Shown here: one piece after another, positions 1 to 53,373 of the stretch
Layout of the letters: every line of letters begins with the position of its first letter
How positions within the stretch are numbered: the stretch's first letter is position 1
NCBI GenBank assembly: GCA_038087875.1
Contig: CM075992.1
Location: 1,366,001-1,430,000, forward strand
DNA: 64,000 bases
Direction: 5' to 3'
Origin: Malacoraja senta
Lineage: Eukaryota
Position numbers and translations under genes: made by a program
The notes under the pieces: model-generated
What the model was told of the DNA's origin: nothing
Databases searched by the model: none
Seen by the model: the letters and a program-made list of their open reading frames with translations, nothing else

Positions 1-275
1 TGGGGTTAAGAGGGAGAGATAAATCAGCCATGATTGAATGGCGGAGTAGACCTGATGGGCCGAATGGCCTAATTCCGCTCCTATGACTTATATGAACATG
101 AAGCTATAAGACCCTTTCATTCTGGGACTGTGGTTCCTGGTTTAGTTTTAGTTTAGAGATACAGCGCGGACACAGGCCCTTCAGCCCACCGAGTCCGTGC
201 CAACCAGCGATCAGCCTATCCTACACACTAGGGACAATTGGGGTTAGGAAGGAGATATAGATCAGCCATGAGTGG

Positions 276-886
276 ACTTGCAACCGCAAGAGATGCAACA
301 CTTGTCCCTTCACCTCCCCCCTCGATTCCATTCAAGGACCCAAGCAGTCGTTCCAGGTGCGACAGAGGTTCACCTGCATCTCCTCCAACCTCATCTATTG
401 CATCTGCTGCTCTAGATGCCAGCTGATCTACATCGGTGAGACCAAGCGGAGGCTTGGCGATCGTTTCGCCGAACACCTCCGGTCGGTCCGCAATAACCTA
501 CCTGACCTCCCGGTGGCTCAGCACTTCAACTCCCCCTCCCATTCCGTATCTGACCTCTCTGTCCTGGGTCTCCTCCATGGCCACAGCGAGCAACACCGGA
601 AATTGGAGGAAATGCACCTCATATTCCGCTTGGGCAGTCTACATCCTGGGGGCTTGAACATTGAATTCTCCCAACTCTGCTAGCCCTTGCTGTCCCCTCC
701 CCTTCATCAGCCCTCTGGTTGTCTCCTCCCCTCCCCCAGCCCTCGGGCTCCTCCTCCGCCTTTTTCCCTTTCTTCTCCCCACCCCCTATCAGTGTGAAGA
801 AGGGTTTCGGCCCGAAACGTTGCCTATTTCCTTCGCTCCATAGATGCTGCTGCACCCGCTGAGTTTCTCCAGCATTTTTGTGTACC
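276..886 (+). mobile_element. Penelope-like element (PLE) 3' fragment: GIY-YIG endonuclease end plus terminal repeat with hammerhead motif
   Basis: Frame 276-683 reads TCNRKRCNTCPF...NLIYCICCSRCQLIYIGETKRRLGDRFAEH...VAQHFN...GLN, the PLE GIY-YIG domain with its Cys/His motifs. Followed by a pyrimidine-rich UTR and the GTGAAGAAGGGTTTCGGCCCGAAACGTT motif at 794-821. Confidence 0.92.
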
Positions 887-1856: not shown

Positions 1857-2192
1857 TGGGTAGGAAAGAACTGCAGATGCTGGTTTAAATCGAAGATAGA
1901 AACAAAATGCTGGAGTAACTCAGCGGGACAGGCAGCATCTCCGGAGAGAAGGAATGGGTGACGTTTCGGGTCGAGACCCTTCTTCAGACTGATTAAGTTG
2001 TCTCTTCATTTTTATATGGCAATTTGGGGAGCTTGTATTGTGTAAGTATAGCATTGGAATGTGTAGGAAGGAACTGCAGATGCTGGTTTACACCGATGAT
2101 AGACACAAAATGCTGGAGTAACTCAGCGGGACAGGCAGCATCTCTGGAGAGAAGGAATGGGTGACGTTTCGGGTCAAGACCCTTCTTCAGAC
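1857..2192 (-). mobile_element. Tandem pair of PLE terminal repeats with TSD
   Basis: Two direct copies with hammerhead cores at 1960-1987 and 2163-2190. Flanked by TGATAAAGGG(G/A)ATAA at 1842-1856 and 2193-2207. Confidence 0.8.
1960..1987 (-). ncRNA. Minimal type I hammerhead ribozyme motif (consensus copy)
   Basis: Minus strand reads CTGAAGA A GGGT CTCG ACCC GAAA CG TC. Confidence 0.7.
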
Positions 2193-2885: not shown

Positions 2886-2999
2886 AAGATGCAGCGTGGG
2901 AACAGGTCCCTCGGCCCTCCGAGTCCAAGCCGAACGCCAATCACACGTTCACACTCGTTCTAATAAAAATATGAATTGCTTTGCCAGTGTAAATCATTC

Positions 3000-3790
3000 A
3001 GTGGTGGCTAGCTCATTGAGTGTGTAAATTGTCCAGTGAGTGTGATTTACTTGTGACGAGTGTGTAAACCAAGCAGTGGTGAGTGTGAAAATCATTTGAT
3101 GATTGTCATTGGTTTGGTTGTGTAAATCACTCAGTGGGCGTGGATTGCTTAGTGAGTGTGTAAATCACAGTGGGTGTGAGTTGCTTGGTGGGTGTGTAAA
3201 TCAGTAAGTGGGTGTGGATTCCTCGGTGCGTGTGTAAATTAGTGCGTGTGGATTCCTCGACGAGTGTGTAAATTACTCAGTGTGTGGATTCCTCGGCGAG
3301 TGTGTAAATCGCTCAGTGGGCGTGGATTGCTTAGTGAGTGTGTAAGTCACAGTGGGTGTGAGTTGATTGGTGGGTGTGTAAATCACTAAGTGGGTGTGAG
3401 TTGCTTGGTGGGTGTGTAAATCACAGTGGGTGTGAGTTGCTTAGTGAGTGTGTAAATCACTCCGTGTGTGTGAGTTGCCTGGTGGGTGTGTAAATCACTC
3501 AGTGGGCGTGGATTGCTTAGTGAGTGTGTTAATCACAGTGGGCGTGAGTTGCTTAGTGAGTGTGTAAATCACTCCGTGGGTGTGAGTTGCTTGGTGGGTG
3601 TGTAAATTAGTGCATGTGGATTCCTCGGTGAGTGTGTAAATCACTCCGTGGGTGTGGATTCCTCGGCGAGTGTGTAAATCACTCAGTGCGTGTGGATTCC
3701 TCGGCGAGTGTGTAAATCGCTCAGTGGGCGTGGATTGCTTAGTGAGTGTGTAAATCACTCCGTGGGTGCGGATTCCTCGGTGAGTGTGTA
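3000..3790. repeat. GT-rich minisatellite, ~36-38-bp unit (GTGTGTAAATCACTCAGTGGGTGTGGATTGCTTAGTGA-like)
   Basis: Roughly 20 recurrences of GTGTGTAAATCAC at ~37-bp spacing. Confidence 0.9.
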
Positions 3791-4615
3791 GGATACAAGT
3801 GAAGAATGACATAGATCGAGTGTGTACAGGTGACCACTGGTCAGCGTAGACCCGTTGGGCCAAAGGGCCTGTTTCCACGCTGTATCTCTAAACACGGAGT
3901 GAATTTTAATACCTGTACTCTTGTGTGTCCCTCCGTGTGATCCCAGCCTTTTAAAGTTTTAAAAGCCACTTCAATGGCTGTAACAAAAGGGCACGGTGTT
4001 TCCTGAGGTCACACAAGACGTGGCAGAAAGACTAGCCTGAGGAATTGGACACAAAATGCTGGAGTAACTCACTCAGCAGGTCAGGCAGCCTCTCTGGTGA
4101 AAAGGAATCTGTAACGAACCCTTCTTCAGACTTTTCCGACCCAAAACGTCACCTATTCTTTTTCTCCAGAGATGCTGCCTGACCCACTGAGTTACTCCAG
4201 CACTTTGTGTTTATCTTCAGTATAAACCAGCATCTGCAGTTCCTTCCTCAACGAAGCTTGAGGAAACTCTTTCAAGTAACTCCTGCATTCCCTCTCTCTC
4301 TCTCTCCATCCCTCCCTCCCCCATCCTCACCATTTGCATTCCTTCGTTATCACCTCATCCCCAGCCAACAATGGACCATTGTGGGCTCCACCTTTCCCGA
4401 GTCATCGGTGCGGGTTCTGCTTTGTTCTGTACCTTCCACACATCTAGCTTCCCCCTCCCCTGACTCTCAGTCTGAAGAAGGGTCTCGATACGAAACGTCA
4501 CCCATTCCTTCTCTCCAGAGATGCTGCCTGTCCCGCTGAGTTACTCCAGCACTTTGTGTCTTTCTCCAGAGATGCTGCCTGTCCCGCTGAGTTACTCCAG
4601 CATTTTGTGTCTCCT

Positions 4616-4920
4616 TTAGTTCAGTTTAGTTTGGTAGATGCAGCGCTGAAACAGGCCCTTCGGCCCAGTGAGACCACACCGATCAGCGATCCCCACGCAT
4701 TAACACTATCCAACACACACTAGGGCCAATTTTTGCTTTTATACCAAGCCAATCAACCTACACACCTGTACGTCTTTGGAGTGTGGGAGGAAACAGAAGA
4801 TCTCGGAGAAATCCCACAGGGAGAACGTGCAAACTCCGTACAGACAGCACCTGTAGTCGGGATCGAACTCGGGTCTCTGGCGCTGTAAGGCAGCAACTCT
4901 ACCGCTGCACCATCACGCCA
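4616..4920 (-). mobile_element. V-SINE (HE1-like), full length
   Basis: Reverse complement of the SINE with (CTAAA/CTGAA)n tail. Confidence 0.85.
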
Positions 4921-5079
4921 CATTAGAAATGAGGACAAGTCATAGAGACTGGCAAGAGGCTGTAACAGAGACTGGACGTGAATCCTGAGTGCCAGAGCTG
5001 ACCTTTTCAATGAGAATGAGATCCTCACGTCATGCATAAGGACACACACGTTCCCTAAACGGCTCTCCAATCTCTCTTA

Positions 5080-5466
5080 TAGAAACATATAAAATTATTA
5101 AGGGATTGGACAGGCTCGATGCAGGAAAAATGTCCCCCATGTTGGGGGCGTCCAGAAACAGGGGTCACACAGTTTAAGAATAAGGGGTCGGCCATTTAGG
5201 ACTGAGATGAGGGAAAACTTTTTCACCCAGAGAGTTGTGAATCTGTGGAATTCTCTGCCACAGAAGGCAGTGGAGGCCGATTCACTGGATGTATTCAAGA
5301 GAGAGTTAGATTTAGCTCTTAGGGCTAACGGAATCAAGGGATATGGGGAGAAAGCAGGAACGGGTTACTGATTCTGGATGATCAGCCATGAGCACATTGA
5401 ATGGCGGTGCTGGCACGAAGGGCCGAATGGCCTACTCCTGCACCTATATTTCCATGTCTATGTTTC
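5080..5466 (+). mobile_element. CR1 LINE 3' fragment
   Basis: ETYKIIKGLDRLDA...FFTQRVVNLWNSLP...GYGEKAGTGY plus 3' UTR. Confidence 0.88.
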
Positions 5467-6175
5467 TAACCATGTAGACTATTTGCTCCATGTTGTGTTT
5501 CCCACCAAAATGGTAAATTGCACATTTTTTGCCCATTTCCCTCCATTTGCCAGGTCTGTCACCTAACCAGTTTCTTCCCCTTTTGCAATCTCCTCATGTC
5601 GTTGTTTTACCTTAGACTTTGGAGACACAGTGTGGAAACAGGCCCTTCGGCCCACCGGGTCCGTGCCGACCAGCGATCGCCCATACTTTCCTAGTTCCAC
5701 CCCCCACATGGGGACAATTTACCGAAGCCAATTAACCTACAAATCTGCACGTCTTTGAGATGTGGGAATAAAACCGGAGCACCTGGAGAAAACCCACGTG
5801 GTCACAGGGAGAAACACTGTACAGACAGCCCCCGTAGTCAGGATTGAACCCAGGTCTCTCACGCTGCGAGGCAGCAACTCTACCGCTGCGACAGTGTGTC
5901 ATCCTTATTTGATTTGATTCTGAATCTTCTCAACTACGCTCTTGAAATCTAAGTATCCAAAGCACATGTTAATTCTTCAAAGAACTCCAATAAATTGATC
6001 AAACATGATATCCCTTTCACAAATCCATCTTAACCTTGCCTGGATGTTTAGAAGTGTCGCTCTACAACATTTTCAATACGAGCTTCTTATGTTTTCCCTG
6101 TGATAGATGTTATGCTAACTACTGTAGCTCATAGTGGAAGCGAGGAACTGCAGATGCTGGTTTGCAAAAAAAAGA

Positions 6176-6433
6176 CACAAAGCGCTGGAGTAACTCAGCG
6201 GGTCAGTCAGCATCTGTGGAGAACATGGATAGGTGACGTTTCACAGAGCGCTGGAGTAACTCAGCGGGTCAGGCAGCATCTGTGGAGAACATGGATAGGT
6301 GACGTTTCACAGAGTGCTGGAGTAACTCAGCGGGTCGGGCAGCATCTGTGGAGAACATGGATAGGTGACGTTTCACAGAGTGCTGGAGTAACTCAGCGGG
6401 TCAGGCAGCATCTGTGGAGAACATGGATAGGTG
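6176..6433 (-). repeat. 66-bp tandem array derived from the PLE terminal repeat
   Basis: GTGACGTTTCACAGAG junction recurs at 6233, 6299 and 6365. Confidence 0.9.
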
Positions 6434-7310
6434 CATAGATGATGTATTGTGTTGGGTCCCTTTTCCCCTCTGAATGTGGGGTGGGGGGGGGGAGAAGAAA
6501 AGATGGAAGAGATGAGGGGCAGGACAAAGCCTGGCAAGTGATAGATGGATGCAGCTGAGGGAGGCAGATGGTTGGACCAAGGCCAGAGATTAAAAGACAG
6601 AAGGGGCTAGACAAAACGCCACCTATCCATTCCCTCCACAGATGCTGCCTGACCCACTGGGTTACTCCAGCGTTTTGTTTAAGACTCTGGATAAAGTCCA
6701 ATTACAGAGAATGAGGTCTCCAATGAGGTAGATGGGAGGTGAGGACCACTCTCTAACTGGTGAGATGACGGTTCAGTTGCCCGATGACAGCTGGGAAGAA
6801 ACTGTCCCTGAATCTGAATCTGAATCAGTCTGAAGAAGGGTCTCGACCCGAAACGTGGCCTATTTCCTTCGCTCCATAGATGCTGCCTCACCCGCTGAGT
6901 TTCTCCAGCATTTTTGTCTACCTTCGATTTTTTCCAGCATCTGCAGTTCTTTCTTAAACACTGAATCTGGAGGTGTGCGTTTTCACACTTCTGTACCTCT
7001 TGTCTGATGGGAGAGGTGGGGGGGGGGGGAGAAGGAATGACTTGGGTGAGACTTGTCCTTGATTATGTTGGTGGCTTTGGCAAGGCAGTGTGAAGTGTAG
7101 ATGGAGTCAATGGAAGGGGGATTGGTTTGCGTGATGGTCTGGGCTACATCCACGATTCTATGCAATTTCTTACTGTCTTGGATAGACCTGTTCAGCTCTA
7201 TAAAACCATATAACCATATAACAATTACAGCACGGAAACAGGCCATCTCAGCCCTTCTAGTCCGTGCCCAACACTTACTCTAACACGAACACTAACACGA
7301 ACACTAACAC

Positions 7311-8452
7311 AAAGTTAGGAGTTTCTCGACTAACATAGGCAACTCTTTCTCCTCCCCAGCTAATCTCTGCTGTGGGGTTCCACAAGGTTCCATCCTTGGC
7401 CCCATTCTCTTCTTCCTGTATATGCTCCCCTTAGGCCAAGTCATTGAAAGGCACGGCATTTCCTTCCATTGCTACGCAGACAATACACAACTCTATCTCC
7501 CCCTGAAGCCCAAAAACCAATCAAATCTGTTTAACCTTACCCACTGCCTCGAGGATATAAAGTGTTGGATGGCCCAGAACTTCCTCCAACTAAACGAGAG
7601 TAAGTCTGAGGTCATCCTTCTCGGCCCCTCGGACTCAATCAAAATGATAGCAGGCAGCCTTGGAAGCCTTACCCCACTACTCAAACCTCACATCAAAAAC
7701 CTTGGCGTGATATTTGACTCTGCACTGAAATTTGACAAACAAGTCAATGCCGTGGTAAAAGCTAGCTTCTTTCAGCTTCGGACGATAGCTAAAATAAAAC
7801 AATTCCTCCAGTTTGATGACCTGGAAAAGATCATCCACACATTTATCTCCTCCCGCCTAGATTACTGCAACTCCCTTTACACTGGCATCAGCCAATCTTC
7901 CCTGTCCCGCCTGCAACTGGTCCAAAACGCCGCAGCGAGACTCCTGACGGGCACCCGAAAAAGGGACCACATCACCCCCGATCCTGGCCTCTCCCCACTG
8001 GCTCCCTGTGCGGTTCCGTATAAACTTCAAGATCCTCCTCCATGTCTACAAAGCCCTCAATGGGCTTGCCCCCACCTAGATAAAAAGTCTTCTCACCCAC
8101 CACTCCACCTCCAGGCCCCTCAGATCGGCCGACTTGGGGTTGCTGAATATCCCACGGTCTAGGCATAAGCTCAGGGGCGACCGGGCCTTTGTGGTTGCAG
8201 CCCCTAGACTGTGGAACAACATCCCCCTTCCCCATCAGAACTGCCCCCTCCATCGACTCTTTTAAGTCAAGACTAAAGACTTATCTATACTCCCAAGCCT
8301 TTCCTGACGTCCTCTTGAGTGAGGGCTACATGTATATATGTATGTAGTTTGTTTTGTTGTGCTATTCTTATAACAAATGTAAAGCACTTTGGCCAACGAG
8401 AGTTGTTTTTTAAATGTGCTATATAAATAAATGTGACTTGACTTGACTTGAC
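7311..8452 (+). mobile_element. L2-clade LINE, 5'-truncated, degenerate RT
   Basis: GVPQGSILGPILF...HCYADNTQLY...LDYCNSLY...LQLVQNAAARLL. Catalytic YADD is YADN, there is a frameshift near 7980, and the tail is (GACTT)n. Confidence 0.92.
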
Positions 8453-8712
8453 TATTCTCCCCTAGTCCCATCTACCTGCACTCAGACCATAACCCTCCAT
8501 TCCTTTCCCGTCCATATACCTATCCAATTTATTTTTAAATGATAAAATCAAACCTGCCTCCACCACTTCCTCTGGAAGCTCATTCCACACAGCTACCACT
8601 CTCTGAGTAAAGAAGTTCCCCCTCATGTTGCCCCTAAACTTTTGTCCCTTAATTCTCAAATCATGTCCTCTTGTTTGAATCTTCCCTACTCTCAATGGAA
8701 AAAGCTTATCCA
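8453..8712 (-). mobile_element. CR1 LINE 3' fragment (subfamily with TATGGTTA tail; its 3' UTR lies at ~7205-7280, split off by the L2)
   Basis: TRGHDLRIKG...FFTQRVVAVWNELP...GYGLSAGRWD. Compare the uninterrupted copy at 62715-63210. Confidence 0.85.
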
Positions 8713-9313
8713 TTTAATTTAGAGATACACCGCAGAAACAGATCCCTCGGCCTGCTGAGCCCGTATCGTCCAGCGATCCTTACACTAGCACTATCGTATA
8801 CTCTAAGGGCTACTTACAATTTTACCAAACCAATCAGCCTATAAACCTGGATGTCTTTGAAGTATGGGAGAAAACAGGAGCACCCGGAGAAAGCCCACAT
8901 GGTTACGGGGAGAGCATACAGACTGCGCCCATATTCAGGATCAAACCAGGGCCTCGAGTTGTAAGGTGCTAACTCTAACTCTGCACCACTGTGCTGTCCG
9001 TATTTGACACATTGGGGAAATGAGGGTTATTAGGCTTTGGCCATAGACCAGACCGAAGGGGCCGAGTGGCCTGCTCCTATTTGCTTGTGTTTTTGTGTTC
9101 ATTTCTAATTCTCAGGTTACAGCTATTTCTGGAATTCTCTGCAGTAAAGACTGATGCAAAGTATCGCTTTAATTCATCCATCATCTCTGTGTTTCCATTA
9201 TTTATTCCCCAGATGCACTTTCTCTATAACCAGTGCTCATTTTGTTAACTTTTCTAAGTACCTGCAGAAACTCCAACTATCTGTTTTTTAAATATCTGTC
9301 TGGCTCTATCTCA

Positions 9314-9640
9314 CGTGGAAGGAGGAACTGCAGGCGCTGGTTTAAACCGAAGATAGACACAAAATGCTGGAGTAACTCAGCGGGACAGACAGGCAGCATC
9401 TCTGGAGGGGAAGGAATGGGTGACGTTTCGGGTCGAGACCCTTCTTCAGACTGGTTAAGGATAAGGGAAACGAGAGATATAGACGGTGATGTGGAGAGAT
9501 AAAGAACAATGAATGAAAAAAATGTTTCCCTTATCCCGAACCAGTCTGAAGAAGGGTCTCGACCTGAAACGTCACCCATTCCTTCTCTCCAGAGATGCTG
9601 CCCGTCCCGTTGAGTTACTCCAGCTTTTTGTGTCTATCTT
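9314..9640. mobile_element. Fold-back (inverted) PLE terminal-repeat insertion
   Basis: Hammerhead core on - at 9422-9449 and on + at 9546-9573. 13-bp TSD TGGCTCTATCTCA at 9301-9313 and 9641-9653. Confidence 0.85.
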
Positions 9641-17239: not shown

Positions 17240-18172
17240 CAGGACTCAAAGTCGCTTTACAATTGAGAGCCAGGAATAAACAAAACAAAATAGAGCAGTA
17301 AGACAAAGGGGAGGGGGACATGGGACTAAGGGTATGCAGAGGTGAAGAGATGGGTCTTGAGGCGGGACTGGAAGATGGTGAGGGACCTCTTGTGGGACCG
17401 GTTGTGGGAGGGAATTCCAGAGCCTGGGAGCTGCCCTGGAGAAGGCTCTGCCTCCAAAAGTGTAGAGGTTTGCTTTCGGAGTGGAGAGGAGACCAGCTGA
17501 TGTGGATCTGAGGGACCGTGAGGGTTGGTAGGGGGAGAGGAGGTCAATGAGATAAGGGGGGGGGGGGGGGCAGGTTGTTGAGGGCTTTGTAGGTGAGGAC
17601 CAGGATTTTGTAGGTGATCCGGTGGGAAATGGGAAGCCAGTGAAGTTCTTTGAGAACTGGGGTGATGTGGTGCCAGGATTTGGTGTGGGTGATGAGTCGG
17701 GCGGCTGCATTCTGGACCAGTTGGAGTCGGTTGATGCTGCTGGAATTGATTCCGAAAAGAAGAGAGTTACAGTAGTCCAGTCGGGAGGAGATGAAGGCAT
17801 GGATGAGTCTTTCAGCAGCGGGGGGTGTGAGAGAGAGGATCTGATTTTTGCAATGTTGCGGAGGTGAAAAAATGATGTTTTGACAACATGGCGGATGTGA
17901 GGCTCAAGGGAGATGGTTGAATCAAAGATCACGCCAAGGTTGCGTGCCTGAGGAGATGGGGAGACAGTGGTGCCGTCAATAGTGAGAGTGGGGTTGTTAA
18001 TTTTAGTGAGTGTTGATTTGGAGCCAATGAGGAGAAATTCTGTTTTGCTACTGTTTAATTTAAGGAAGTTGAGTTGCATCCAAGATTTGATGGCTGATAG
18101 GCAGGAGTTGATATGGGAGCGAGGGGGGGTGGTGGGGGGACTTGGTGCTGAGATAGATCTGGGTGTCATCAG
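17240..18172 (-). mobile_element. L2-clade LINE 3' fragment, frameshifted
   Basis: ADDTQIYLS...WMQLNFLKLNSSKTEFLLIG...ARNLGVIFDS...GRAFSRAAPRLWNSLP. Confidence 0.9.
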
Positions 18173-18430
18173 CAAGAGTGGGTGAGCGTTTGACGGCACT
18201 GAGCCTGCACTCGCTGGAGTTTAGAAGGTTGAGGGGGGACCTCATTGAAACTTACAGAATAATGAAAGGCCTGGATAGAGTGGATGTGGAGAGGATGTTT
18301 CCACTGGTGGGAGAGTCTAGGACCAGAGGTCACAGCCTCAGAATTAAAGGGCGCTCTTTTGGAAAGGAGGTGAGGAGGAACTTCTTTAGTCAGAGGTTAG
18401 TTAATCTGTGGAACTCATTGCCACAGAGGG
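18173..18430 (+). mobile_element. CR1 fragment
   Basis: SLEFRRLRGDLIETYRIMKGLDRVDVE...WNSLPQ. Confidence 0.85.
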
Positions 18431-19639: not shown

Positions 19640-20095
19640 CTCAAGTTCAAGTGAGTTTATTGTCGTGTGTCCCTGATAGGACAATGAAATTCTTGCTTTG
19701 CTTCAGCACAACAGAACATAGTAGGTACACAAAAATGCTGGAGAAACTCAGCGGGTGCAGCAGCATCTATGGAGCGAAGGAAATAGGCGACGTTTCGGGC
19801 CGAAACCCTTCCTCAGACATAGTAGGCATTGACTACAAAACAGATCAGTGTGTCCATATATCATTCTATAAATATATACACACATGAATAAAGAAACTGA
19901 TAAAGTGCAAATAACAGATAATGGGTTATTAATGTTCAGAGTTTTGTCCGAGCCAAGTTTAATAGCCTGATGGCTGTGGGGAAGTAGCTATTCCTGAACC
20001 TGGTCGTTGCAGTCTTCAGGCTCCTGTACCTTCTACCTGAAGGTAGCGGGGAGATGAGTGTGTGGGCCGGATGGTGTGGGTCTTTGATGATACTG
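19640..20095 (-). mobile_element. Rex1/Babar LINE 3' end inserted in a V-SINE
   Basis: [46 protein letters not shown]; same family as 55113-56690. Confidence 0.85.
19726..19816 (-). mobile_element. Solo ~91-bp PLE hammerhead mini-insert
   Basis: TSD ACATAGTAGG at 19716-19725 and 19817-19826. The 5' end is at the CTGAGGA core. Confidence 0.85.
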
Positions 20096-21262
20096 CCCGT
20101 GACCTGCGTGGGTTTTCCCCAGGTGCTCTGGTTTCCTCCCACACTGCCGGTTTGTAGGTTAATTGGGTTTGGTACAAATTGTAAATTGTAAATTGCCCCA
20201 GGTGTGTAGGATAGCGGGGATCGCAGGTCGGCACGGACTCGGTGGGTCGAAGGGCCAGTTTTTGTGCTGTATCTCATAGAGCGATACAGTGTGGAAACAG
20301 GCCCTTCGGCCCAACTTACCCACACCGGCCAACAATGTCCCAGTTGCACTAGTCCCACCCGCCTGTGCTTGGTCCATATCCCTCCAAACCTGTCCTATCC
20401 ATGTACCTGCCCAACTGTTTCTTAAACGATGGGATAGTCCCAGCCTCAACTACCTCCTCTGGCAGCTTGTTCCCATACACCCACCACCCTCTGTGTGAAA
20501 AAGGTATCCCTTGGATTAAACCTATTAAATCTTTTCCCCTTCACCTTGAACCTTTGTCGAAACTAAACTAACTGCATTACCTGTTGACCCAAGGCGGTCA
20601 ACTGTTGAACTGTCCCAGATACTGGTGTGCTCAGAAGAAGTGTGTCGACACAAAGTTGTATTGTGCTGGAAAAACATGGACACCCTTGTTCACCCCCCTC
20701 CTGCTCACTCACAGACCTACACCAGCTCCTTGTATTTAATTTGCTCCACACTCACTCTCACGCAGAGTGGGGGCAGCGGTAGAGGTAGCATAGGTTTGTG
20801 AAAACGCACACCTCCAGATTCAGGGACAGTTTCTTCCCAGCTGTTATCAGGCAACTGAACCATCCTACCACAACCAGAGAACGGCGCTGAACTACTATCT
20901 ACCTCATTGGTGACCCTCGGACTATCCTTGATCGGACTTTGCTGGCTTTACCTTGCACTAAATGTCACCATGTATCCATACGCTGTAAATGGCTCGATTA
21001 TCTTTCCGCTGACTGGTTAGCACGCAACAAAAGCTTTTCACTGTACCTCGGTACACGTGATAATAAACGGAACTGAGTTGCTACTTTACAGTTCCAAAGA
21101 CCGAGGTTACATCAAGTCTCAACCCATTCTCCTGCCTTCTCCCATGACACTAATCAAGAATCTATCATTCTCTACCTTAAAAATATCCACTGACTTGGCC
21201 TCCACAGCCATCTGTGGCAATGAGTTCCACAGGTTCACCAACCTCTGACTAAAGAAATTCCT

Positions 21263-21353
21263 CTGAAGAAGGGTTTCGGCCCGAAACGTTGCCTATTTCC
21301 TTCGCTCCATAGATGCTGCTGAACCCGCTGAGTTCTCCAGCATTTTTGTCTAC
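21263..21353 (+). mobile_element. Solo ~91-bp PLE hammerhead mini-insert
   Basis: TSD CTAAAGAAATTCCT at 21249-21262 and 21354-21367. Starts at CTGAAGA. Confidence 0.85.
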
Positions 21354-21505
21354 CTAAAGAAATTCCTCCACATCTCCTTCCTACAGGTACGTCCTTTTAT
21401 TCTGAAGCTGCGGCCTCTGGCCCTGGATTCTCCCTACAAATGGAGACATCCTCTCCACATCCACTCTATCCAGTCCTGGATAATGGAAGTAACAAGAACT
21501 TATGA

Positions 21506-21596: not shown

Positions 21597-22053
21597 AGAA
21601 CTTATGATAAACACTTTCAAATTGAACAGTGGCTGCAAGATGTTCAGAGTTGAGTTGAGTTCAGTTTATTGTCACGTTGTACCGAGGTAGAGTGAAAAGC
21701 TTTTGCTGCGTGCTAACCAGTCAGCGGAAAGACAATACAGGATTACAATCGAGCCATTCACAGTGTATAGATACATGATAAAGGGTGTAACTTGAATAAC
21801 ATTTAATGCAAGATAATGTCCAGTTTGGACTGATCAAAAATAGTACGGGGGTCTCCAAAGAGGTAGATTGTAGTTCAGGACTGCTAAACGCTAAAAGATA
21901 GGGTAGACACTCAGAACCTTATTTTTGGGATGGAAAAGATAAAAGAGAGGTCAAAGTTAGGTAATGAGTAAATAAGCTCCAGAAAGATGGAGAAGCAAAA
22001 TTCTATATTGATTATTAGACTCAGATTTTGTACCCAATGGAACATAATTCAGT

Positions 22054-22081
22054 CTGAAGAAGGGTCTCGACCCGAAACGTC
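22054..22081 (+). ncRNA. Minimal hammerhead ribozyme motif (consensus copy)
   Basis: CTGAAGAAGGGTCTCGACCCGAAACGTC. Confidence 0.7.
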
Positions 22082-22236
22082 TCCCATTCCTTCTCTCTAG
22101 AGATGCTGCCCGTCCCGCTGAGTTACTCCAGCATTTTGTGTCAACTTCGAACCCAATTCTGGATAATTTAACAGGGACTCGAGTGTTGTTGGACAAGGTA
22201 AATGAAGATCTACTCAAATCTTTATATTGCTGAACT

Positions 22237-23008: not shown

Positions 23009-23263
23009 TGACAGAGAATTCCACAGATTCACAACTCTCTGGGTGAAAAAGTTTTTCCTCATCTCCGTTCTAAATGGCCTACCCCTTATACATTGTTGAA
23101 ACAGGCCTTTCAACCCAACTTGCCCACACTAATGTCCCAGCTACACTAGTCCTGCCTGCCTGCGTTTGGCCCTAATTTCCCTCCAAACCTGTCCTATCCA
23201 TGTACCTGTCTAATTGCTTCTAAAACGTTGGGAGAGTCCCAGCCACGACTACTTCCTCTGGCA

Positions 23264-23501
23264 AGTAGACAAAAGTGCTGGAGAAACTCAGCAGGTACAG
23301 CAGCATCTATGGAGCGAAGGAAATAGGCAACGTTTCGGGCCAAAACCCTTCTTCAGACTGAACCTGACATCAGTCTGAAGAAGGGTTTTGTCCTGAAACG
23401 TTGCCTATTTCCTTCGCTCCATAGATGCTGCTGCACCCGCTGAGTTTCTCCAGCACTTTTGTCTACCTTCGATTTTCCAGCATCTGCAGTTCCTTCTTAA
23501 A
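23264..23501. mobile_element. Fold-back PLE terminal-repeat insertion
   Basis: Cores at 23329-23356 (-) and 23375-23402 (+). TSD TAC(T/C)TCCTCTGGCA at 23250-23263 and 23502-23515. Confidence 0.8.
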
Positions 23502-28291: not shown

Positions 28292-29855
28292 GCACGCAAC
28301 AAAAAGCTTTTCACTACACGTGACAATTAACTAATCTACAGACCGAAGACAGACACAGAAAGCTGGAATAACTCAGCGGGACAGACAGCATCTCTGGAGA
28401 GAAGGGATGGGTGACGTTTCGGGTCGAGACCCTTCTGCAGCTGTGAGTCCATTCCCTTTGTCCTATTTTCACACCTCACACTTCCTTATCTACGTATCTC
28501 CCTCTCCCGACATCAGTCTGAAGAAGGATCTCGACCTGAAACGTCACCCATTCCTTCTCTCCAGAGATGCTGCCTGTCCCGCTGAGTTGCTCCAGCATTT
28601 TGTGTCTATCTTCGGTTTAAACCAGCATCTGCAGTTCCTTCCTACACATTCTGCTGATAGTGTTGGAAGGGACTGGGTTACTCCGAAGATAGACACAGAG
28701 TGCTGGAGTAACTCAGCGGGTCAGGCAGCATCTCTGGGGAAAAGGAATAGGTGACGTTTCCGGTCGGGACTCAGTCTTCAGACTGAAAATAACTCCTTCA
28801 AAGTAGGCATACCTTGGGGAGATTTTGCAGTGGAGCAGACAAAAGAAACTGCAGGTAGACACGAAATGCTGGAGTAACTCAGCGGGACAGGCAGCATCTC
28901 TGGAGAGAAGGAGTGGGTGACGTTTCGGGTCGAGACCCTTGTTCAGGCTGACCTGACAGTCTGGCAACTGTACACTACATCATTGTGCTGTCCTGTTGCG
29001 TACATGGATAGATGACATTTGGATTTGAGCTACAGGCTGAAAAAGAGCCATGACCCGAAACGTTAGCTGTCCATGTTCTCCAGAGGTGTTGCCTGACCCG
29101 CTGAGTAACTCCAGTGCCTTTTTTCTCTCTAAACCAGCGTTTGTGGTTCCTTATTTCTCACCGATTCCTTTCGTATCTATTATCCAGCCTTTCCTCTGTT
29201 CTCTGTCTCTATTGTTCGTCGTCAACCTCTGTGTGAACTTTAGACTTTGTCTCTGGAACTGTTATCACAACTGAATCACAATGTTTCAGACACATTTAGA
29301 CAGGTGCATGGATAGGACAGGTTTTAGAGGGATATGGGCCATTTAGAACGGAGACGAAGAAACACTTTTTCGCACAGAGAGTGGTGAGTCTGTGGAATTC
29401 TCTGCCTCAGAGGGCGGTGGAGGCAGGTTCTCTGGATGCTTTCAAGAGAGAGCTAGATAGGGCTCTTAAAGATAGCGGAGTCAGGGGATATGGGGAGAAG
29501 GCAGGAACGGGGGGTACTGATTGGGGATGATCAGCCATGATCACATTGAATGGCGGTGCTGGCTTGAAGGGCTGGATGGCCTACTCCTGCACCTATTGTC
29601 TATTGTCTAAATGCAGGCAGGTGGGACTACTACAGATGGGGCATTTGGTCGGTGTGGGCAAGTTGGGCCGAAGGGCCTGTTTTTGTGCTATATGATTCTA
29701 TGACTACTTTATGGTACAATGCTGGAAACTATATCCTACACACTGTATCCGTCCATGTGCTCTCCCTGTTATCCTTGATTCTGGCTTGATTGTATTTATG
29801 TATACGGTAGTATTATCTATTTTGCTGGATATTTCAAAGCTGAAATAGCTCAGTT

Positions 29856-30524: not shown

Positions 30525-31194
30525 GGCGGGAGAGCATTCAACTGAAGATCTAAAGGTCCCTGGTTCGATCCCAGGTCCATCCTCGATCCCAAGAACAAAT
30601 ACATGTAAAAAGTGGCTTATTCTTTGCTCAAGGATCCATATCTCTCCTCTGATCTATCGTCCGTGACAACAATCTATTGATTCTGCTACATAACGTGACT
30701 CTGAACCTTGCACCTTTCTTGTCCATGTCCAGTCTTGCACTAGCTGTAGGTTAAACATGTCCCATTCCTTCTCTCCAGAGATGCTGCCTGTCCCGCTGAG
30801 TTACTCCAGCATTCTGTGTCTATCTTTGGTTTAACGTGTCCACTCACAGACTGCCTTCATGTTAAGTTTACATTTCCCTGCCTGTTCCATTAACCAGGGC
30901 TGAAAGTGACAAATACTCTGCATGTGTAGGAAGGAACTCCAGACGCTGGTTTAAACCGAAGGTAGACACAAAATGCTGGAGTAACTCAGCGGGGCAGGCA
31001 GCATCTCTGGAGAGAAGGAATGGGTGACTTCAGAAGAAGGGTCTCGACCCAAAATGTCCCATTCCTTCTACCCAGAGATTCTGCCTGTCCCGCTGAGTTT
31101 TTTGGGTCAATCTTCAATGTTCTCCAGGTATGGCTGGACTGTAAGTGCAGCTTTGACAGCTTCTAGTTAGTCATAGAATCATACTACACATTGC

Positions 31195-33804: not shown

Positions 33805-34245
33805 TAGGAAGGAACTGCAGATACTGGTTTACACCGAAGATAGACACAAAATGCTGGAGTAACTCAGCGGGACAGGCAGCACCTCTGGAGAGAAGGAATG
33901 GGTGACGTTTCAGGTCGAGACCCTTCTTCAGACAGAGACAGGGTGGAGGGAGACAGAGATATGGAAGGGTGAGGTGTAAGATAAGGATAAGAGGCTTTCC
34001 CTCCTTCTCCATCCCTGCCCCATCCTAGTTCTCCGATTAGTCTGACTGTCTCTTCATCCCCTTTGATCTCTCATTGTTACACCTCACCCTTCCATATCTC
34101 TGTCTCCCACTCCCCATCACTCTCAGTCTGAAGAAGGGTCTCCACCCGAAATGTCACCCGTTCCTTCTTTCCAGAAACGCTGCCTGTGCCGCTGAGTTGC
34201 TCCAGCATTTTGTGTCAGACTGAAGAAGTTTGTGTCTATCTTCGA
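33805..34245. mobile_element. Fold-back PLE terminal-repeat pair
   Basis: Cores at 33904-33931 (-) and ~34128-34155 (+, mutated). Confidence 0.75.
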
Positions 34246-35003
34246 GTTTCCGGGCGTGCATATCTCTGAAGATCAGTCCTGGACCCAGCACATTGATGCT
34301 ATCATGAAAAAAAGACCATCAGACAGATGATTGAGGAGATTTGGCATGTTAGACAATAGACAATAGACAATAGGTGCAGGAGTAGGCCATTCGGCCCTTC
34401 GAGCCAGCACCGCCATTCAATGTGATCATGGCTGATCATCCCCAATCAGTACCCCGTTCCTGCCTTCTTCCATTATCCCCTGACTCCGCTATTTTTAAGA
34501 GCCCTATCTTAATGATTAGGGCTCATTTTGTTGATGAATACTCTCTTGTACTTCTACAGGTGTATGGTGGAGAACATATTGACTGGTTGCACTCTAGCCT
34601 GGATCGACAACTCAAACATCCAGGATTGAAGGAGAATACAAAGAGTGGTGGAACACTGCCCGGTCCATCACGGGTACTGACCTCCCCACCATCAAAGGAA
34701 TCTGCAGATGGTGCTGCCTTGAAAAGGTAGCCAGCATGATCAAGGACCCATGCCACCCTGGCCACGCTCTCATTTCACTCCTGCCGTTGGGAAGAAGGTA
34801 CAGGAGCCTGAAAACCATGGACCTCCAGGTTCAGGAATAGCTTCCTCCCATTAACCAGTCTGAAGAAGGGTCTCAACCCGAAACATCACCCATTCCTTCT
34901 CTCCAGAGATGCTGCCTGTCCCGCTGAGTTACTCCAGCATTTTGTGTCTCTCTTTGTCTTAAACCAGCATCTGCAGTTCCTTCCTGGCCCACATTAAGGA
35001 TTT

Positions 35004-35618
35004 GGCATGATAAGCAAAGAGGTCCTTCTGCAGTTGTACAGGGCCCTAGTGAGACCACACCTGGAGTATTGTGTGCAGTTTTGGTCCCCTAATTTGAGGA
35101 AGGACATTCTTGCTATTGAGGGAGTGCAGCGTAGGTTTACAAGGTTTATTCCCGGGATGGCGGGACTGTCATATGCTGAGAGAATGGAGCAGCTGGGCTT
35201 GTACACTCTGCAGTTTAGAAGGATGAGAGGGTATCTCATTGAAACATATAAGATTGTTAATGGTTTGGACACGCTAGAGGCAGGAAACATGTTCCCGATG
35301 TTGGGGGAGTCCAGAACCAGGGGCCACAGTTTAAGAATAAGGGGTAAGCCATTTAGAACGGAGACGAGGAAACACTTTTTCTCACAGAGAGTGGTGAGTC
35401 TGTGGAATTCTCTGCCTCAGGGGGCGGTGGAGGCGGGTTCTCTGGATGCTTTCAAGAGAGAGCTAGATAGGGCTCTTAAAAATAGCGGAGTCAGGGGATA
35501 TGGGGAGAAGGCAGGAACGGGGTACTGATTGGGGATGATCAGCCATGATCACATTGAATGGCGGTGCTGGCTCGAAGGGCTGAATGGCCTACTCCTGCAC
35601 CTATTGTCTATTGTCTAT
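35004..35618 (+). mobile_element. CR1 3' fragment (open frame 35007-35528)
   Basis: LYRALVRPHLEYCVQFWSP...IEGVQRRFTR...GYGEKAGTGY plus (TATTGTC)n tail. Confidence 0.93.
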
Positions 35619-40362: not shown

Positions 40363-41289
40363 AACATGATCATCCAAAATCAGTACCCCGTTCCTGCCTT
40401 CTCTCCATATCGCTTGATACCTTTAGTCCTAAGAGCTAAATCTAACTCGATGGGCCGAATGGCCTACTACTGCTCCTAGTTTCTATCTGTGGCAATGAAT
40501 GCTCAGATTCATCCACCTCAAGCTAAAGAAATTATTTATTTCCTTTCTAAAGAAATTCCTCCTTTTCTCTTGAAAACACCCAGTGAATTGGCCTCCACTG
40601 CCTTATGTAGCAGAGAATTCCACAGATTCAAAACTCTCTGGATGAAAAAGGATTTTCCTCATCTCAGTCCTAAATGGCCGACCTCTCAATTTTAAACAGT
40701 GACCCCTGGCTATGGACTCCCCCAACACCGGGAACATTTCTTCTGCATCGAGCCTGTCCAAGCCCTCAAGAATTTTATATGACGCAAATAAATACTCTGC
40801 CTGTGTTCTCCATTGTGTGTGGCCACCATGAAATGACCCGCATGAGATTCCAGGCAACACAAGACAGACTTTAGAGATACAGCGCGGAAACAGGACCCTT
40901 CGGCCCACCGAGTCTATGCTCTCCAGCGATCACCCCTGTACACAAACACTAGCCAACACACTAGGGACTATTTCACAATATACCAAAGCCAATTAACCTC
41001 TAGTTTTAGTTTTGGAAATACTGGCAACAGGCCCTTCGCCCATCGAGTCCGTGCCAAGCAGCGATCCTCGCACACTAGCAATATCCTGCACACTAGGGAC
41101 AATTTACAATCTCTACCAAAGACAAATAACCTACAAATGCACGTCTTTGGAGTGTTGGAGGAAACCAAAAACACCTGGAGAAAACCCACACGGTCACAGG
41201 GAGAACGTACAAACTCTGCACGGACAGTGCCTGTAGTCAGTATCGAACCCTTCCATATCTCTGTGTCTCCCTCTCCCCTGAATCTCAGT

Positions 41290-41317
41290 CTGAAGAAGGG
41301 TCTCGACCCGAAACGTC
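41290..41317 (+). ncRNA. Minimal hammerhead ribozyme motif (consensus copy)
   Basis: CTGAAGAAGGGTCTCGACCCGAAACGTC. Confidence 0.7.
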
Positions 41318-41671
41318 ACCCGTTCCTTCTCTCCAGAGATGCTGCCTGTCCCGCTGAGTTACTCCAGCAGTTTGTGACTGACTTTGGCTATAAATAGTCA
41401 TTGGCAATCTGGCACAGGAGAAGTCTCTAGGAGCTGGAGGCTGCATTCTCCTCTTGAGTCCAGATGAGGCCAGGAATTAGCAGAGCAAGGGTGTTCCCCA
41501 GGGCTCTGGGACACTCAGGTCTATTTTAAACCGGTTCTGGGGCAGGGCTTGCGTCAGCAATGCTACATCATCACCAGCCACGTGGTCACAAGAACCGTGG
41601 CTAAGTGCATGAGCTGATGAGGTCAAAGGTCCACCTAGGAGATACCTAAACATGTCCACCTTACTCTGCTA

Positions 41672-42479: not shown

Positions 42480-42992
42480 CTGTCATCTCACATTTTCACA
42501 CCTTCCCCTTCCATATCTCTATTTCCCTCTCCCCCGACTCTCAGTCTGAAGAAGGGTCTCGACCAGAAACGTCACCCATTCCTTCTCTCCAGAGATGCTG
42601 CCTGTCCCGCTGAGTTACTCCAGCACTCTGTGAAACGTCACCTATCCATGTTCTCCACAGATGCTGCATATCTGACCCGCTGAGTTACTCCAGCACTCTG
42701 TGAAACGTCACCTATCCATGTTCCGGCAGAATCTATGGAGCGAAGGAAATAGGCAACGTTTCGGCCCGAAACCCTTCCGGGTTTCGGCCCGAAACCCTTC
42801 CGGGTTTCGGCCCGAAACGTTACCTATTTCCTTCAGGGTTTCAGCCTGAAAGGTTGCCCATTTCCTTCGCTCCACAGATGCTGCCTGACCCGCTGAGTTA
42901 CTCCAGCACTCTGTGAAACGTCACCTATCCATGTTCTCCACCGATGCTGCATATCTGACCCGCTGAGTTACCCCAGCACCTCGTGTCTATCT
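42480..42992 (+). mobile_element. Rearranged PLE terminal-repeat cluster (tandem and fold-back units)
   Basis: Core at 42546. 70-bp tandem units joined at CTCTGTGAAACGTC. 23-bp GGGTTTCGGCCCGAAACCCTTCC reiteration at 42755-42821. Confidence 0.8.
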
Positions 42993-45340: not shown

Positions 45341-46224
45341 AACAGGGTCTGGACCAGAAATGTCAGCCATTCCTTCTCTCCAGAGACGCTGCCCGTCCCG
45401 CTGAGTTACTCCATCTTTTGGTGTCTATCTTCAGTTTAAACCAGCATCTGCAGTTCCTTCCTAAGCTAAACATACAGGGCCCTCCATAATGTTTGGGACA
45501 AAGACCCATCATTTATTTATTTGCCTCTTGTACTCCACAATTTGAGTTTCTACGCTGTATCTCGACACTAAACTAAACTCACATCCCCCTCCCCCCCTCC
45601 TATGGAGCAGCCCAGGGTTCCACCATCAGCCTCACCAGAGTCACAGGGCACAGAAACAGGCCCTTGGAAATAAGGCAGTGGCTGATTATACAGTGAGCTC
45701 AGCAGAGGAGGAAGCAAACATTGAAGAGGAGACAGACACAAAATGCTGGAGTAACTCAGTGGGACAGGCAGCATCTGTGGAGAGAAGGGATGAGTGACGT
45801 TTCGGGTCGAGACCCTTCGTCAGACTGAGAGTCAGGGGAGAGGGAGACACAGAGATATGGACAATGAAAGAAAGATTTAATAGGAGTCTAAAGGGTAACC
45901 TTTTCACACCAAAGGTGGTGGGTGTATGGAACGAGCTGCCAGAGGAGGTAGTTGAGGCAGGGACTATCGCAATGTTTAAGAAACAGTTAGACAGGTACAT
46001 GGATAGGACATGTTTGGAGGAGTGTGGACTTCGCCCTGCACGAAATCTTCGCACACCACCGGCCTGTCGCGTAACTGACGGCCAAAGTGGGACAGGCCCA
46101 AGACCCTGGGGCGACGCAACGTCTCACCTGCAACAGCAGCAGAAGCAGGCAAACTCGGCCTGGGGCTCACGGCCGTTGGGGATCCGGATCCGCCCCCCAC
46201 TCCTACTCCCAGAGCGGGGCCAAG

Positions 46225-46875
46225 TCTCTCTACAAGGGAGTCCTCCCCCTTTACATTGGGGACCTGGGGTGGAGAGTTTTGCACAAAGCCGTGGCCTGTA
46301 ATAGGTACTTGAGCCGGTTCACGGACTCTTCCCCTGCGTGTCATTTCTGCGGTGAGGAAGAGACCGTGTTCCACGTGTATATAGAGTGCGAGAGGTTGCA
46401 GCCCCTGTTCGAGTATCTGAAAGGGCTGCTCCTCAAGTTTTGGCTACATTTTAGTCCAACGCTATTAATCTATGGGCACCCGGTACAGAGGGGGGAGGGT
46501 CGGGAGGGAGGAGGGGGTCTCCCTGTCGGACTGCTCCTGGGCCTGGCCAAGATGGCCATTCGCGGGTCCAGGCAGTGGGCGGTCGATGGCCGCACAGCGG
46601 TCGGCTGCCTGCCCCTTTTCCGGGGTTACGTCCGTGCCCGCGTGTCCCTAGAGAGGGAACACGCGGTGTCCACGGGGACTGTGGAGGCCTTCTGTGAACG
46701 CTGGTCACCGCAGGAGGTTGAATATATTATAGATTAAAATGTTAATATTTTAATTTGATAATTTTGTTTAAGTGTTTTTTAAATGGTGTGAGCTTTCTTA
46801 CCCTCCCTTGTAAATTGTACATTTGTTTAAAAATCTAATAAAAAAAACATTTACGGGAAAAAGAAAAAAAAAAAA
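46225..46875 (+). mobile_element. Tx1/L1-clade LINE 3' end with poly(A) and TSD
   Basis: DLGWRVLH...CHFCGEEETVFHVYIEC (zf-RVT CCHC), AT-rich UTR and A-tail. 14-bp TSD AGAGCGGGGCCAAG at 46211-46224 and 46876-46889. Confidence 0.9.
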
Positions 46876-47576
46876 AGAGCGGGGCCAAGACGATTGGAGA
46901 CAGACACAATAAGCTGGAGTAACTCAGCGGGACAGGCAGCATCTCTGGTGAGAAGCAATGGGTGACGTTTCTTTAGACTGAAGAAGAATCTCGACCCAAA
47001 ACATCACCCATTCCTTCTCTCCAGAGATGCTGCCCGTCCCGCTGAGTTACTCCTGCATTTTGTGTCTATCTTCAAATGACGTCACGCGCTCCAGACGGCT
47101 GTGCGGACGCATGATGACGCGCGTCAGTCACGACCGGCCTGTTGCGTAAATGACAGCCCAAGTGGGACAGGCCCTTAAGGTGGGTGAATGTCTGGGACTG
47201 ATCGAAAATCTCTTCTGCAAATGCGATTCGGAAGTAACCAGCTGCGGTGTTCAGGATCGGCCAGTGTGGAACTGATCCATGCAGGATTAAGGAGCACAGC
47301 TTAATCCGAAGCAGAATGCCACAGACACTGAGTCGGTGCCTGGGAACGTAATCTCCAGATATTAAAGATTGGATTTCCGCGCTCCAACCCCGTGGGGTGC
47401 GTGCAGTCTTTGCAACGGCCCAGTCAAAACTCCACCAGTAGCAAACAAAATGTGTGGGAAGGAACTGCAGACGCTGGTTTACACCGAAGATAGACACAAA
47501 ATGCTGGAGTAACTCAGCGGGACAGGCAGCATCTGTGGAGAGAAGCGATGGGGGTGATGTTCGGGTCGGGTCTGGT

Positions 47577-47604
47577 CTGAAGAAGGGTCTCGACCCGAAA
47601 CGTC
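47577..47604 (+). ncRNA. Minimal hammerhead ribozyme motif (consensus copy)
   Basis: CTGAAGAAGGGTCTCGACCCGAAACGTC. Confidence 0.7.
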
Positions 47605-47631
47605 ACCCATTCCTTCTCTCCAGGGACTACA

Positions 47632-52440: not shown

Positions 52441-53345
52441 GCTTGCACATAAAGTGCAAGTGCAATGAATTTGCCAGCAGCGGTACAATGAAAAAGGAAC
52501 ACACAAAAACACGATAAAAACTTTTTAACACAAACGTCCACCACAGCATTCATCCCTGTGGTGGAAGGCACAACATTTGGCCAGTCCTCCTCCATTTCCC
52601 CCGTGGTCGGGACCTCAACCCTCCGCGGGCGTCCAGATGAGTGGACAAGGTAAAATTCCAGGTAAGTCCTGAATCCGTGCCTCCCCTACCGAAAACTCTC
52701 TGCTCCCAATATCAATAGATGCCAAGAAAATAGTTCATTTTCAATCCAACAATAATAGATTTTAATTGAATAGGCATTTTCAGCCATGGAGCTAAAGGTA
52801 ATAGATTAGCCATGATATTGTAGACTGGACTGGTCAATGTTTTCTGCATTGACATTATCCCCTGTAAGAACATGCCCATCATACATGTATTTAATTAACT
52901 TCACCTCTCCCCTTCCCCCTCGTGTTCGCACAAAGCCTTGACTCTGCGACGCTGGTCTGAAGAGCTATCTAGTTTCCAATTTTTAATAAAAGGGCCAAAG
53001 TGCTGGAGTAACACAGTAGGTCATGCAGCATGGCTGGAGAACATGGACAGGTGACGCTTTGGGTCGCCCACCTTCCCCAGACTGATGGTGGGGGAGGAGA
53101 CGATGAAAGCTGGGAGAGAACAAAAGCTAGCAAGTGCTAGCCAGGAGCAGCAAATTGTAGGTACAGCACCTCACAGTTCACTTGCACAGCTTACAACCCA
53201 GCGCTGGGAATGTTGATTTCTCTAATTTCACATAACCCCTGCATTCTCTGTCTCTCTCTTGCCCTCTCTCTGTCCCTCCACCACCCTAGACATCCTTCTA
53301 GTTTCACTGTTCACATCCCTTCATTATCAATTCTTCCACAGCGGT

Positions 53346-53373
53346 CTGAAGAAGGGTCTCGACCCGAAACGTC
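53346..53373 (+). ncRNA. Minimal hammerhead ribozyme motif (consensus copy)
   Basis: CTGAAGAAGGGTCTCGACCCGAAACGTC. Confidence 0.7.

Follow-up and report, generated by a model that had tools for sequence, protein, structure and literature searches.

A 64,000-nucleotide stretch of the Malacoraja senta genome (contig CM075992.1 of assembly GCA_038087875.1, positions 1,366,001 to 1,430,000, forward strand; hereafter the window) carries many copies of a motif resembling the core of the hammerhead ribozyme, which raises the questions of what this motif belongs to, why its copies begin where they do, and whether they could cut the transcripts that cross them. Positions in the motif were numbered with C3 as +1, so that the predicted cut falls after +28. 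A pattern search allowing up to two mismatches found 28 matches in the 64 kb, against 0.00 expected from 100 shuffles, which upholds the roughly 30 recurrences claimed by a first-pass annotation of this DNA; the 11 example coordinates that it gave were all correct to within 1 base. When up to five substitutions were accepted, the census rose to 36 motif copies, and a profile built from 12 window copies recovered 65 pieces of the terminal repeat (64 on a rerun). Eleven of the 36 near matches are intact, that is, they have the whole core, the G10.1-C11.1 pair, a 4-bp stem II and the CG, and nine of these eleven also have a 2-bp stem I. The motifs do occur on both strands, as had been proposed (six of the intact ones on the minus strand and five on the plus strand), although this pattern is largely due to head-to-head pairs: 34 of the 57 placed window pieces have an inverted partner. 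The window is no special cluster, since its density of one piece per 1.0 kb is about twice the one per 2.1 kb of a genome sample (560 profile matches in 1.198 Mb, from 120 stretches spread over the genome with unplaced contigs left out). By extrapolation, the genome would hold about 0.9 million pieces and, from the 55 found in 1.198 Mb, about 89,000 strict cores; a single 35-mer has 9,951 exact copies in the genome.

The copy at the start of the window links the motif to its parent element. As had been noted, the motif lies just 3' of a GIY-YIG reading frame, beginning 110 bases after the stop; the frame is open from 261 to 680, matches Pfam GIY-YIG weakly (E 1.6e-4, 22.4 bits for a cut-off of 22.6) and keeps only the last 136 codons of the element ORF. 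A first look for the endonuclease fragment gave 94,181 candidates in the 1.94-Gb genome, and the 150 that were scored are 94-100% identical. Among 12 retrieved loci with long frames, we identified one whole element (L025), in which the motif occurs at 2723 and 6667, flanking an ORF at 2886-6551 (1,221 aa) whose ATG is located 163 bases downstream of C3. This single ORF contains a reverse transcriptase (RVT_1, E 5.9e-6) together with a GIY-YIG domain at its C terminus (E 2.2e-3), both scoring below the Pfam cut-offs, and the segment 2572-2859 is a 97% repeat of the 3' end of the element with the motif in both, a partial tandem that forms the pseudo-LTRs of an EN+ Penelope-like element (PLE); L029 is arranged likewise. 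The window motifs are the terminal repeats (pLTRs) of such RT and GIY-YIG Penelope-like elements. At E<=1e-20 the ORF has 1,611 homologs (8,000 scored), the nearest named ones being shark and ray proteins with 63-73% identity, followed by marine invertebrates with about 50%; among viral contigs, none of 14 candidates was a relative. The window translation carries a CX4CXXC linker, which fits the CX2-5CxxC linker between RT and EN that defines the Neptune/Nematis type in the available part of PMC8557442, and this linker motif marks the element as a putative EN+ PLE of that type. One named ray protein isoform (P0080) includes element sequence, and the pyrimidine tract with AG at +30 to +50 looks like a good 3' splice site in all subfamilies (e.g. 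41319-41337), so exonisation of element sequence is possible. The features of the window are the following.

273-683, plus strand: 3' end of a 5'-truncated Penelope-like ORF that encodes a linker finger (CX4CXXC) and a GIY-YIG endonuclease containing CCHH and that stops at 681-683
684-791, plus strand: pyrimidine-rich 3' UTR with TCA directly before the motif; full-length copies L021-L032 are alike
792-823, plus strand: minimal hammerhead with stem I at 792-793/822-823; the core begins at 794 with C3>G, and the cut is predicted after 821
824-886, plus strand: conserved segment 3' of the motif, reaching the first preferred 3' end (+93 here; the second, the 'tail', near +130)
270-277 and 891-898: possible 8-bp target duplication around the whole insertion, judged by eye, with 4-base filler
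1960-2190, minus strand: intact motifs at 1960-1987 and 2163-2190; no other intact same-strand pair with stem I is close
9351-9639: head-to-head pair; minus copy intact (9422-9449), plus copy without C11.1
19723-19820, minus strand: solo insertion of about 95 bp with intact motif (19789-19816) and 10-bp target duplication
21249-21368, plus strand: solo insertion of about 92 bp that begins at the core, with the motif at 21263-21290, a stem I of only 1 bp and a 15-bp target duplication
22049-22146, plus strand: solo copy with intact core (22054-22081), stem I lost
23263-23468: head-to-head pair joined at -5/-6; minus copy intact (23329-23356)
28347-28611: head-to-head pair, both cores damaged
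30960-31101: head-to-head pair, damaged
33838-34221: head-to-head pair with 63-77 bp of 3' UTR per arm, damaged
41285-41383, plus strand: CUCG-loop copy with intact motif (41290-41317)
45730-45828, minus strand: copy with intact motif (45796-45823)
46898-47071: head-to-head pair, damaged
47488-47626: head-to-head pair; plus copy intact (47577-47604)
53333-53446, plus strand: solo insertion with intact motif (53346-53373); 10-bp target duplication, then 3 bases, then the core
54894-55044: head-to-head pair, damaged
62029-62323: solo copy (62034, G12>A), then head-to-head pair with complex junction

The window also contains other retroelement fragments, at 55297-56874 (minus), 7308-8162 (plus), 17246-18220 (minus), 34998-35528 (plus) and 46075-46737 (plus), with RVT_1 (E 3e-33; 1e-12) and zf-RVT domains. 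The N-terminal part of a Tc1/mariner-type transposase (49190-49879, minus) adjoins a 200-base gap, and a 75-bp minisatellite at 60884-61393 is open in two frames.

The identification of the motif as the minimal type I hammerhead of PLE terminal repeats is well founded, given that its layout matches the traits described in the available part of PMC4209133 and both repeats of L025 carry it. The catalytic positions (C3U4G5A6N7G8A9, G12A13A14, A15.1-U16.1 and H17) are complete in 11 of the 36 window copies and incomplete at 794, where C3 is replaced by G, a change that reportedly abolished cleavage in another PLE (PMC11167929). This substitution, the 2-bp stem I, the extra A after A9 and the loopless ACGT were all found as the first-pass annotation had described them, and so were the two stem II types, U-A with a CUCG loop versus U-G with a UUCG loop. 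The extra A had been regarded as a caveat; it is instead a listed trait of the minimal hammerhead (min-HHR) motifs (PMC4209133, in part). The suggested check against Rfam returned no hammerhead among the 19 Rfam matches in the window, nor among four matches at E<=10 on 301 bases, as is expected for a covariance model because the motif lacks the stem III loop; the miRNA-like Rfam matches turned out to be hairpins of head-to-head pairs.

The comparison of four copy clusters revealed the excess of core conservation that had been anticipated between subfamilies: none of the 13 catalytic positions differs, versus 19 of 67 downstream positions (Fisher p 0.03). Among the other motif positions 4 of 15 differ, and these lie in loop II (13, 14), in the U-A/U-G pair of stem II (17) and at H17 (28). 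Subfamily variation had been placed at N7 and H17; it stands for H17, but N7 varies in single copies only. When seven clusters were compared, a difference appeared at one catalytic CpG position, in the oldest cluster (13 copies). All five subfamily changes in +1 to +29 are structure-neutral, including the U-A/U-G exchanges in stem II and stem I. A descriptor search at 80 related metagenome loci found 17 sense-strand motifs and 2 antisense ones. The palindrome was demanded by the descriptor and stem I was left free; among the 17 relatives, stem III is ACGT in 12, ACCGGT in 3, AGCT in 1 and AAGCTT in 1. The one base between 9 and 10.1, the G10.1-C11.1 pair and the palindromic 15.2-16.2 are present here and in the 17 related motifs, and stem I has 3-6 pairs in 15 of the 17, with four pair types at the first pair; here it has 2 bp with the U-A/U-G exchange. 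The relatives have the same core with varied but paired helices. The motif was present within 500 bases in only 5 of the 27 related loci that include the endonuclease end.

Regarding activity, none of seven monomer folds formed the hammerhead (z -1.9 to +0.5), and in all seven GAAGAAGGG paired with the downstream pyrimidine run UUCCUUC. The active dimer is predicted to be 21.4 and 24.4 kcal/mol less stable than the best fold, compared with 3.4-20.2 kcal/mol for the 17 relatives, folding energies of three-way junctions being rough; of the 19 motifs compared, those of the window have the shortest stem I class and the worst dimer energy. These values suggest that the version of the hammerhead present here is weak, and it is predicted to cut poorly. 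In the available part of PMC4209133, min-HHRs did not cleave as monomers and cleaved weakly as dimers, and the Drosophila virilis motif with a 2-bp helix I was cleaved once helix III was extended. The motif of an anole PLE needs the protein of the element, and no RNA-seq ends were found at its cut (PMC11167929).

The insertions follow the pattern known for PLEs, with tails, inverted copies and target duplications (PMC8557442 and PMC3846280, both in part). The 3' ends are preferentially located near +94 and near +130, the latter including an optional tail, and a head-to-head inverted partner accompanies 116 of the 316 sampled core-bearing copies; the inverted 5'-truncated copy and the optional 30-40 bp tail of EN+ PLEs are thus both found. 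Of 200 solo copies, 59 are flanked by an exact target duplication of at least 8 bp, compared with 104 of 998 controls. The inverted pairs are joined at short self-complementary spots, and perfect palindromic junctions recur in them at -5 and +11. Some loci show more elaborate arrangements. A multi-step inverted junction, in which the stem II region is copied to and fro, was seen at five unrelated loci (42722-42915, 62126-62323, L090, L102 and L153; six matches in 1.26 Mb), and reflects either a repeated path of template switching at the UUCG subfamily's GTTTCG/CGAAAC hairpin or the copying of a whole palindromic unit. Two tandem arrays (6173-6464, minus; 42541-42992, plus) consist of a 66-72 bp unit that spans +21 to +86 of an older subfamily and leaves out the 5' half of the core. 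L147 and L150 have a hairpin-like 5' extension of about 40 bases that is common to three copies and absent from long elements; there was probably an insertion into a different repeat, which was later amplified. In L021 the 3' UTR is expanded by a tandem of about 2.7 kb between the stop and the motif, and a locus 10 kb before the window (L033) forms with window positions 1-712 a tandem duplication of about 5.3 kb, 95-99% identical and including the endonuclease fragment, which may be recent or an assembly artefact.

The 5' ends of the copies are concentrated at the edge of the motif. Among the 290 sampled pieces that could be placed (of 315), 95 begin at -6 to +1 and 10 at +27 to +31. The UUCG subfamily was chosen for a closer count since its upstream sequence is known, a choice that excludes unknown parents; of 84 copies, 29 start at -7 to +5, 28 at +6 to +26 (mostly fold-back junctions) and 2 at +27 to +31. 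Among 30 exact young copies, 17 start at -7 to +1 and one at -13, and 12 extend at least 80 bp upstream (two of them being arms of one pair). Starts of this subfamily were also counted over the whole genome, as matches preceded by three non-matching letters and given as raw/chance-normalised values: 700/1598 at -1, 902/2234 at -3, 264/1020 at -4, 172/613 at -5 and 36/76 at -7, the last for one of two upstream types (perhaps 130). Because the -7 pattern covers 7 of the 12 long copies, the drop from -3 to -7 is nearer 17-fold than 29-fold. According to the positions counted (-1, -3, -4, -5 and -7), the 5' edge is a band of 5-6 bases at -5 to -1, with no single base. An ungapped 5'-end scan over all subfamilies was excluded, as it was confounded by indels at +34 to +43.

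In the same counts there was no sharp 5'-end peak at the cut site: starts amounted to 149/340 at +28, 175/432 at +29 (G variant only), 57/317 at +30 and 157/358 at +33, drawn from a pool about three times larger than the upstream pool (49 versus 16 exact matches in the sample). The +29 value is 1.2-1.4 times those at +30 and +33 before the A variant is added, and +28 is lower after chance matches are removed; a small cleaved fraction, estimated at under about 0.3% of copies, is possible. Of the first 100 listed +29 matches, 53 belong to six triplets compatible with junctions formed through palindromes, microhomology or deletion, and 19 retrieved +29 loci comprised 14 head-to-head copies, 3 solo copies and 2 internal deletions. 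A +1/+29 junction, seen at 7 of 11 chosen TCA-flanked loci, was considered as a cleavage product and rejected: the recurrent +29 junction letters (n = 31) are A in 21, C in 8, T in 1 and G in 1, and the A form, being commoner by 21 to 8, fits microhomology and not cleavage. We also discarded a cap-derived G before the start, as the 25 non-C letters before AGT (G 11, A 9, T 5) look like background plus mutation, and G before GT (14 of 28) is indistinct from it. In contigs of other runs, the best-supported loose ends with random flanks were at -2 in four of four runs (91, 174, 114 and 23 contigs), and in two of four further runs they were at -3/-2; these ends are insertion borders and not RNA ends, and the absence of +29 among the best-supported ones listed is no proof.

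We consider that the copies of 95-135 bp are probably reverse transcription products of uncut RNA, primed internally and running off its 5' end 2-3 bases before the core. The anole PLE offers a precedent, since it primes internally at two sites and extends both strands with uncut RNA as the main template, its product length is set by the 5' end of the RNA, and cleavage takes place only with the protein of the element (PMC11167929). Under the run-off reading, the element RNA would start at about -3/-2, which would therefore limit stem I to 2-3 bp at most. Priming at +94 or +130 of the first repeat would yield cDNA of 95-135 bases that integrates alone, and priming in the second repeat would give long copies that include endonuclease sequence, 273-886 being an example. 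The head-to-head pairs could be produced when two cDNAs anneal at TCAG/CTGA, at stem II or at other short matches. The ribozyme, for its part, may cut only weakly, as a dimer assisted by protein and acting on the RNA of the element itself, and dispersed copies would therefore be mostly inert in host transcripts. The extension of this reading to the family, namely that shark and ray PLE RNA starts at the 5' arm of stem I and that a strong-stop-like cDNA of 95-135 bases integrates by itself, is put forward tentatively, as possible and a little short of probable. The TCAGTC at the -3/-2 edge presumably resembles an initiator, and we take +26 to +29 to resemble a downstream promoter element (DPE) at the right distance from it. 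In D. virilis, transcription starts about 120 bases before the hammerhead (PMC2377424 with PMC4209133, both in part), and a start at the motif is therefore not a general layout.

The main rival places the origin of the 5' pile-up at the DNA level: cDNA from the 3' repeat would stall, fold back or undergo trimming where it meets the TCAG-T-CTGA inverted repeat and the hairpin of stem II, and no transcription would start at this edge. The palindromic junctions at -5 and +11 of the inverted pairs agree with it, as do the 28 of 84 UUCG-type copies that start inside the motif; however, solo copies with target duplications start at -4 to +4 without any fold-back, a 4-bp arm with a 1-base loop is weak, and the counts are at background by -7, so that we regard it as unlikely. 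That the motif is a vestige, conserved as a core promoter (initiator at -5 to +1, DPE-like GTCA/GTTG at +26 to +29) or as a protein-binding site with no cleavage, seems improbable to us. Its spacing presumably fits the initiator/DPE consensus, and it has the short stem I and poor dimer energy already mentioned. Penelope itself has an internal promoter with a DPE (PMC2377424, in part). Yet the five subfamily changes, with U-A/U-G exchanges in both stems, are all structure-neutral, and CUGA-GA, GAAA and G10.1-C11.1 are no promoter motifs and never differ; moreover, the D. virilis motif also has a 2-bp helix I, and it was cleaved with an extended helix III (PMC4209133, in part). Splicing could also set a boundary here, through a CAG|T acceptor at -4 to -1 or a GT donor at -2 used with the polypyrimidine-AG at +48/+50. 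All long copies have a pyrimidine tract and CAG before the motif, as well as the tract and AG at +48/+50, and the D. virilis intron ends at helix I (PMC4209133, in part), but no intron-less copy was found in 1.26 Mb (the one match was not intron-less), target duplications often directly adjoin the motif, and the GT at -2 is lost in the relatives. This explanation is very improbable.

The first-pass annotation had proposed about one ribozyme-like motif per 2 kb, so that any transcript crossing the region could carry dimer-competent cleavage sites. Intact copies are sparser than this, at one in about 6 kb, or one in about 12 kb on each strand, and among those with stem I a single same-strand pair is close together (1987 and 2190, minus strand, 203 bp apart). 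A role of the dispersed copies as dimer-competent cleavage sites in the host transcripts that cross them would agree with the conservation of the core between subfamilies, with the extrapolated number of strict cores and the exact copies of the 35-mer, and with the weak cleavage of minimal-motif dimers (PMC4209133, in part). We nevertheless judge it very unlikely: only 11 of the 36 window copies are intact, the 116 of 316 sampled copies with an inverted partner have an antisense twin, the monomer folds hide the core and the dimer gap is large, and the anole motif depends on the protein of the element, with no RNA-seq ends at its cut (PMC11167929). Where a transcript spans a head-to-head pair, it would contain the sense motif and its complement, which would likely pair with each other. 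Nor was a host exon found in the window, 76% of which is repeat against a small custom library; none of the 131 remaining open frames matches Pfam, a search that could overlook short exons. A genome-wide burden of functional cut sites in host RNA would have greater consequences, but the evidence speaks against one.

The motif and its setting are of a known kind, described since 2014. The min-HHRs of metazoan PLEs (Cervera and De la Pena 2014, PMC4209133, in part), reported for Xena, Poseidon and Neptune elements of fishes, share the type I layout without loop III, the palindromic 15.2-16.2, the one extra base between 9 and 10.1 and G10.1-C11.1, and likewise occur in both repeats as well as singly, as thousands of dispersed motifs. 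Helix II has 4 bp here versus 7-8 in the Schistosoma min-HHR, helix I has 2 bp versus 4-5 in Schistosoma and 2 in D. virilis, and the extrapolated copy number is about ten times the 4,000-9,000 of coelacanth and Xenopus given in the same source. Neptune/Nematis EN+ PLEs (Craig et al. 2021, PMC8557442; Arkhipova et al. 2013, PMC3846280; both in part) share the RT, the Zn-finger linker and the GIY-YIG domain, the partial tandems, the heavy 5' truncation, the inverted truncated head-to-head copy, the optional 30-40 bp tail, the short target duplications and the palindromes at inverted junctions; in contrast to their variable 5' truncation, truncation here is concentrated in the 5-6 base band at the hammerhead edge. 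In PAc, the Poseidon element of Anolis (Frangieh et al. 2024, PMC11167929), two internal priming sites bound the tail, and both strands are extended from an uncut template with no RNA ends at the cut, features probably shared here; PAc belongs to a different clade, and its ORF starts inside the hammerhead, unlike the downstream ATG of L025. Non-LTR retrozymes (bioRxiv 10.64898/2026.07.22.740005; PMC7229834; both in part) are also non-coding and pLTR-related with a type I hammerhead, but they are tandem units each with a whole hammerhead, whereas the copies here stand alone or in head-to-head pairs, and in the two arrays (6173-6464 and 42541-42992) the repeated unit comprises only +21 to +86, without the 5' half of the core. 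The available part of the preprint sampled one chondrichthyan genome. In the literature searched we found no report of a PLE hammerhead in cartilaginous fish, although the supplements of PMC4209133 or of the preprint may list one, and no start-site run-off model for PLEs, few subscription papers being covered.

The copy starts in this genome provide a large natural read-out of which RNA was copied. The genome counts are in line with the in vitro finding that uncut RNA serves as template (PMC11167929). The run-off reading makes a precise prediction, capped ends at -3/-2, and, if true, it would account for a stem I of 2 bp as well as for the great abundance of 100-bp copies. The hammerhead would then be the first thing transcribed, hundreds of thousands of insertions would record the RNA start near base resolution, with cleaved RNA almost never the template, and solo copies that bear the tail would keep the start and the priming sites and could be copied again as SINE-like passengers.
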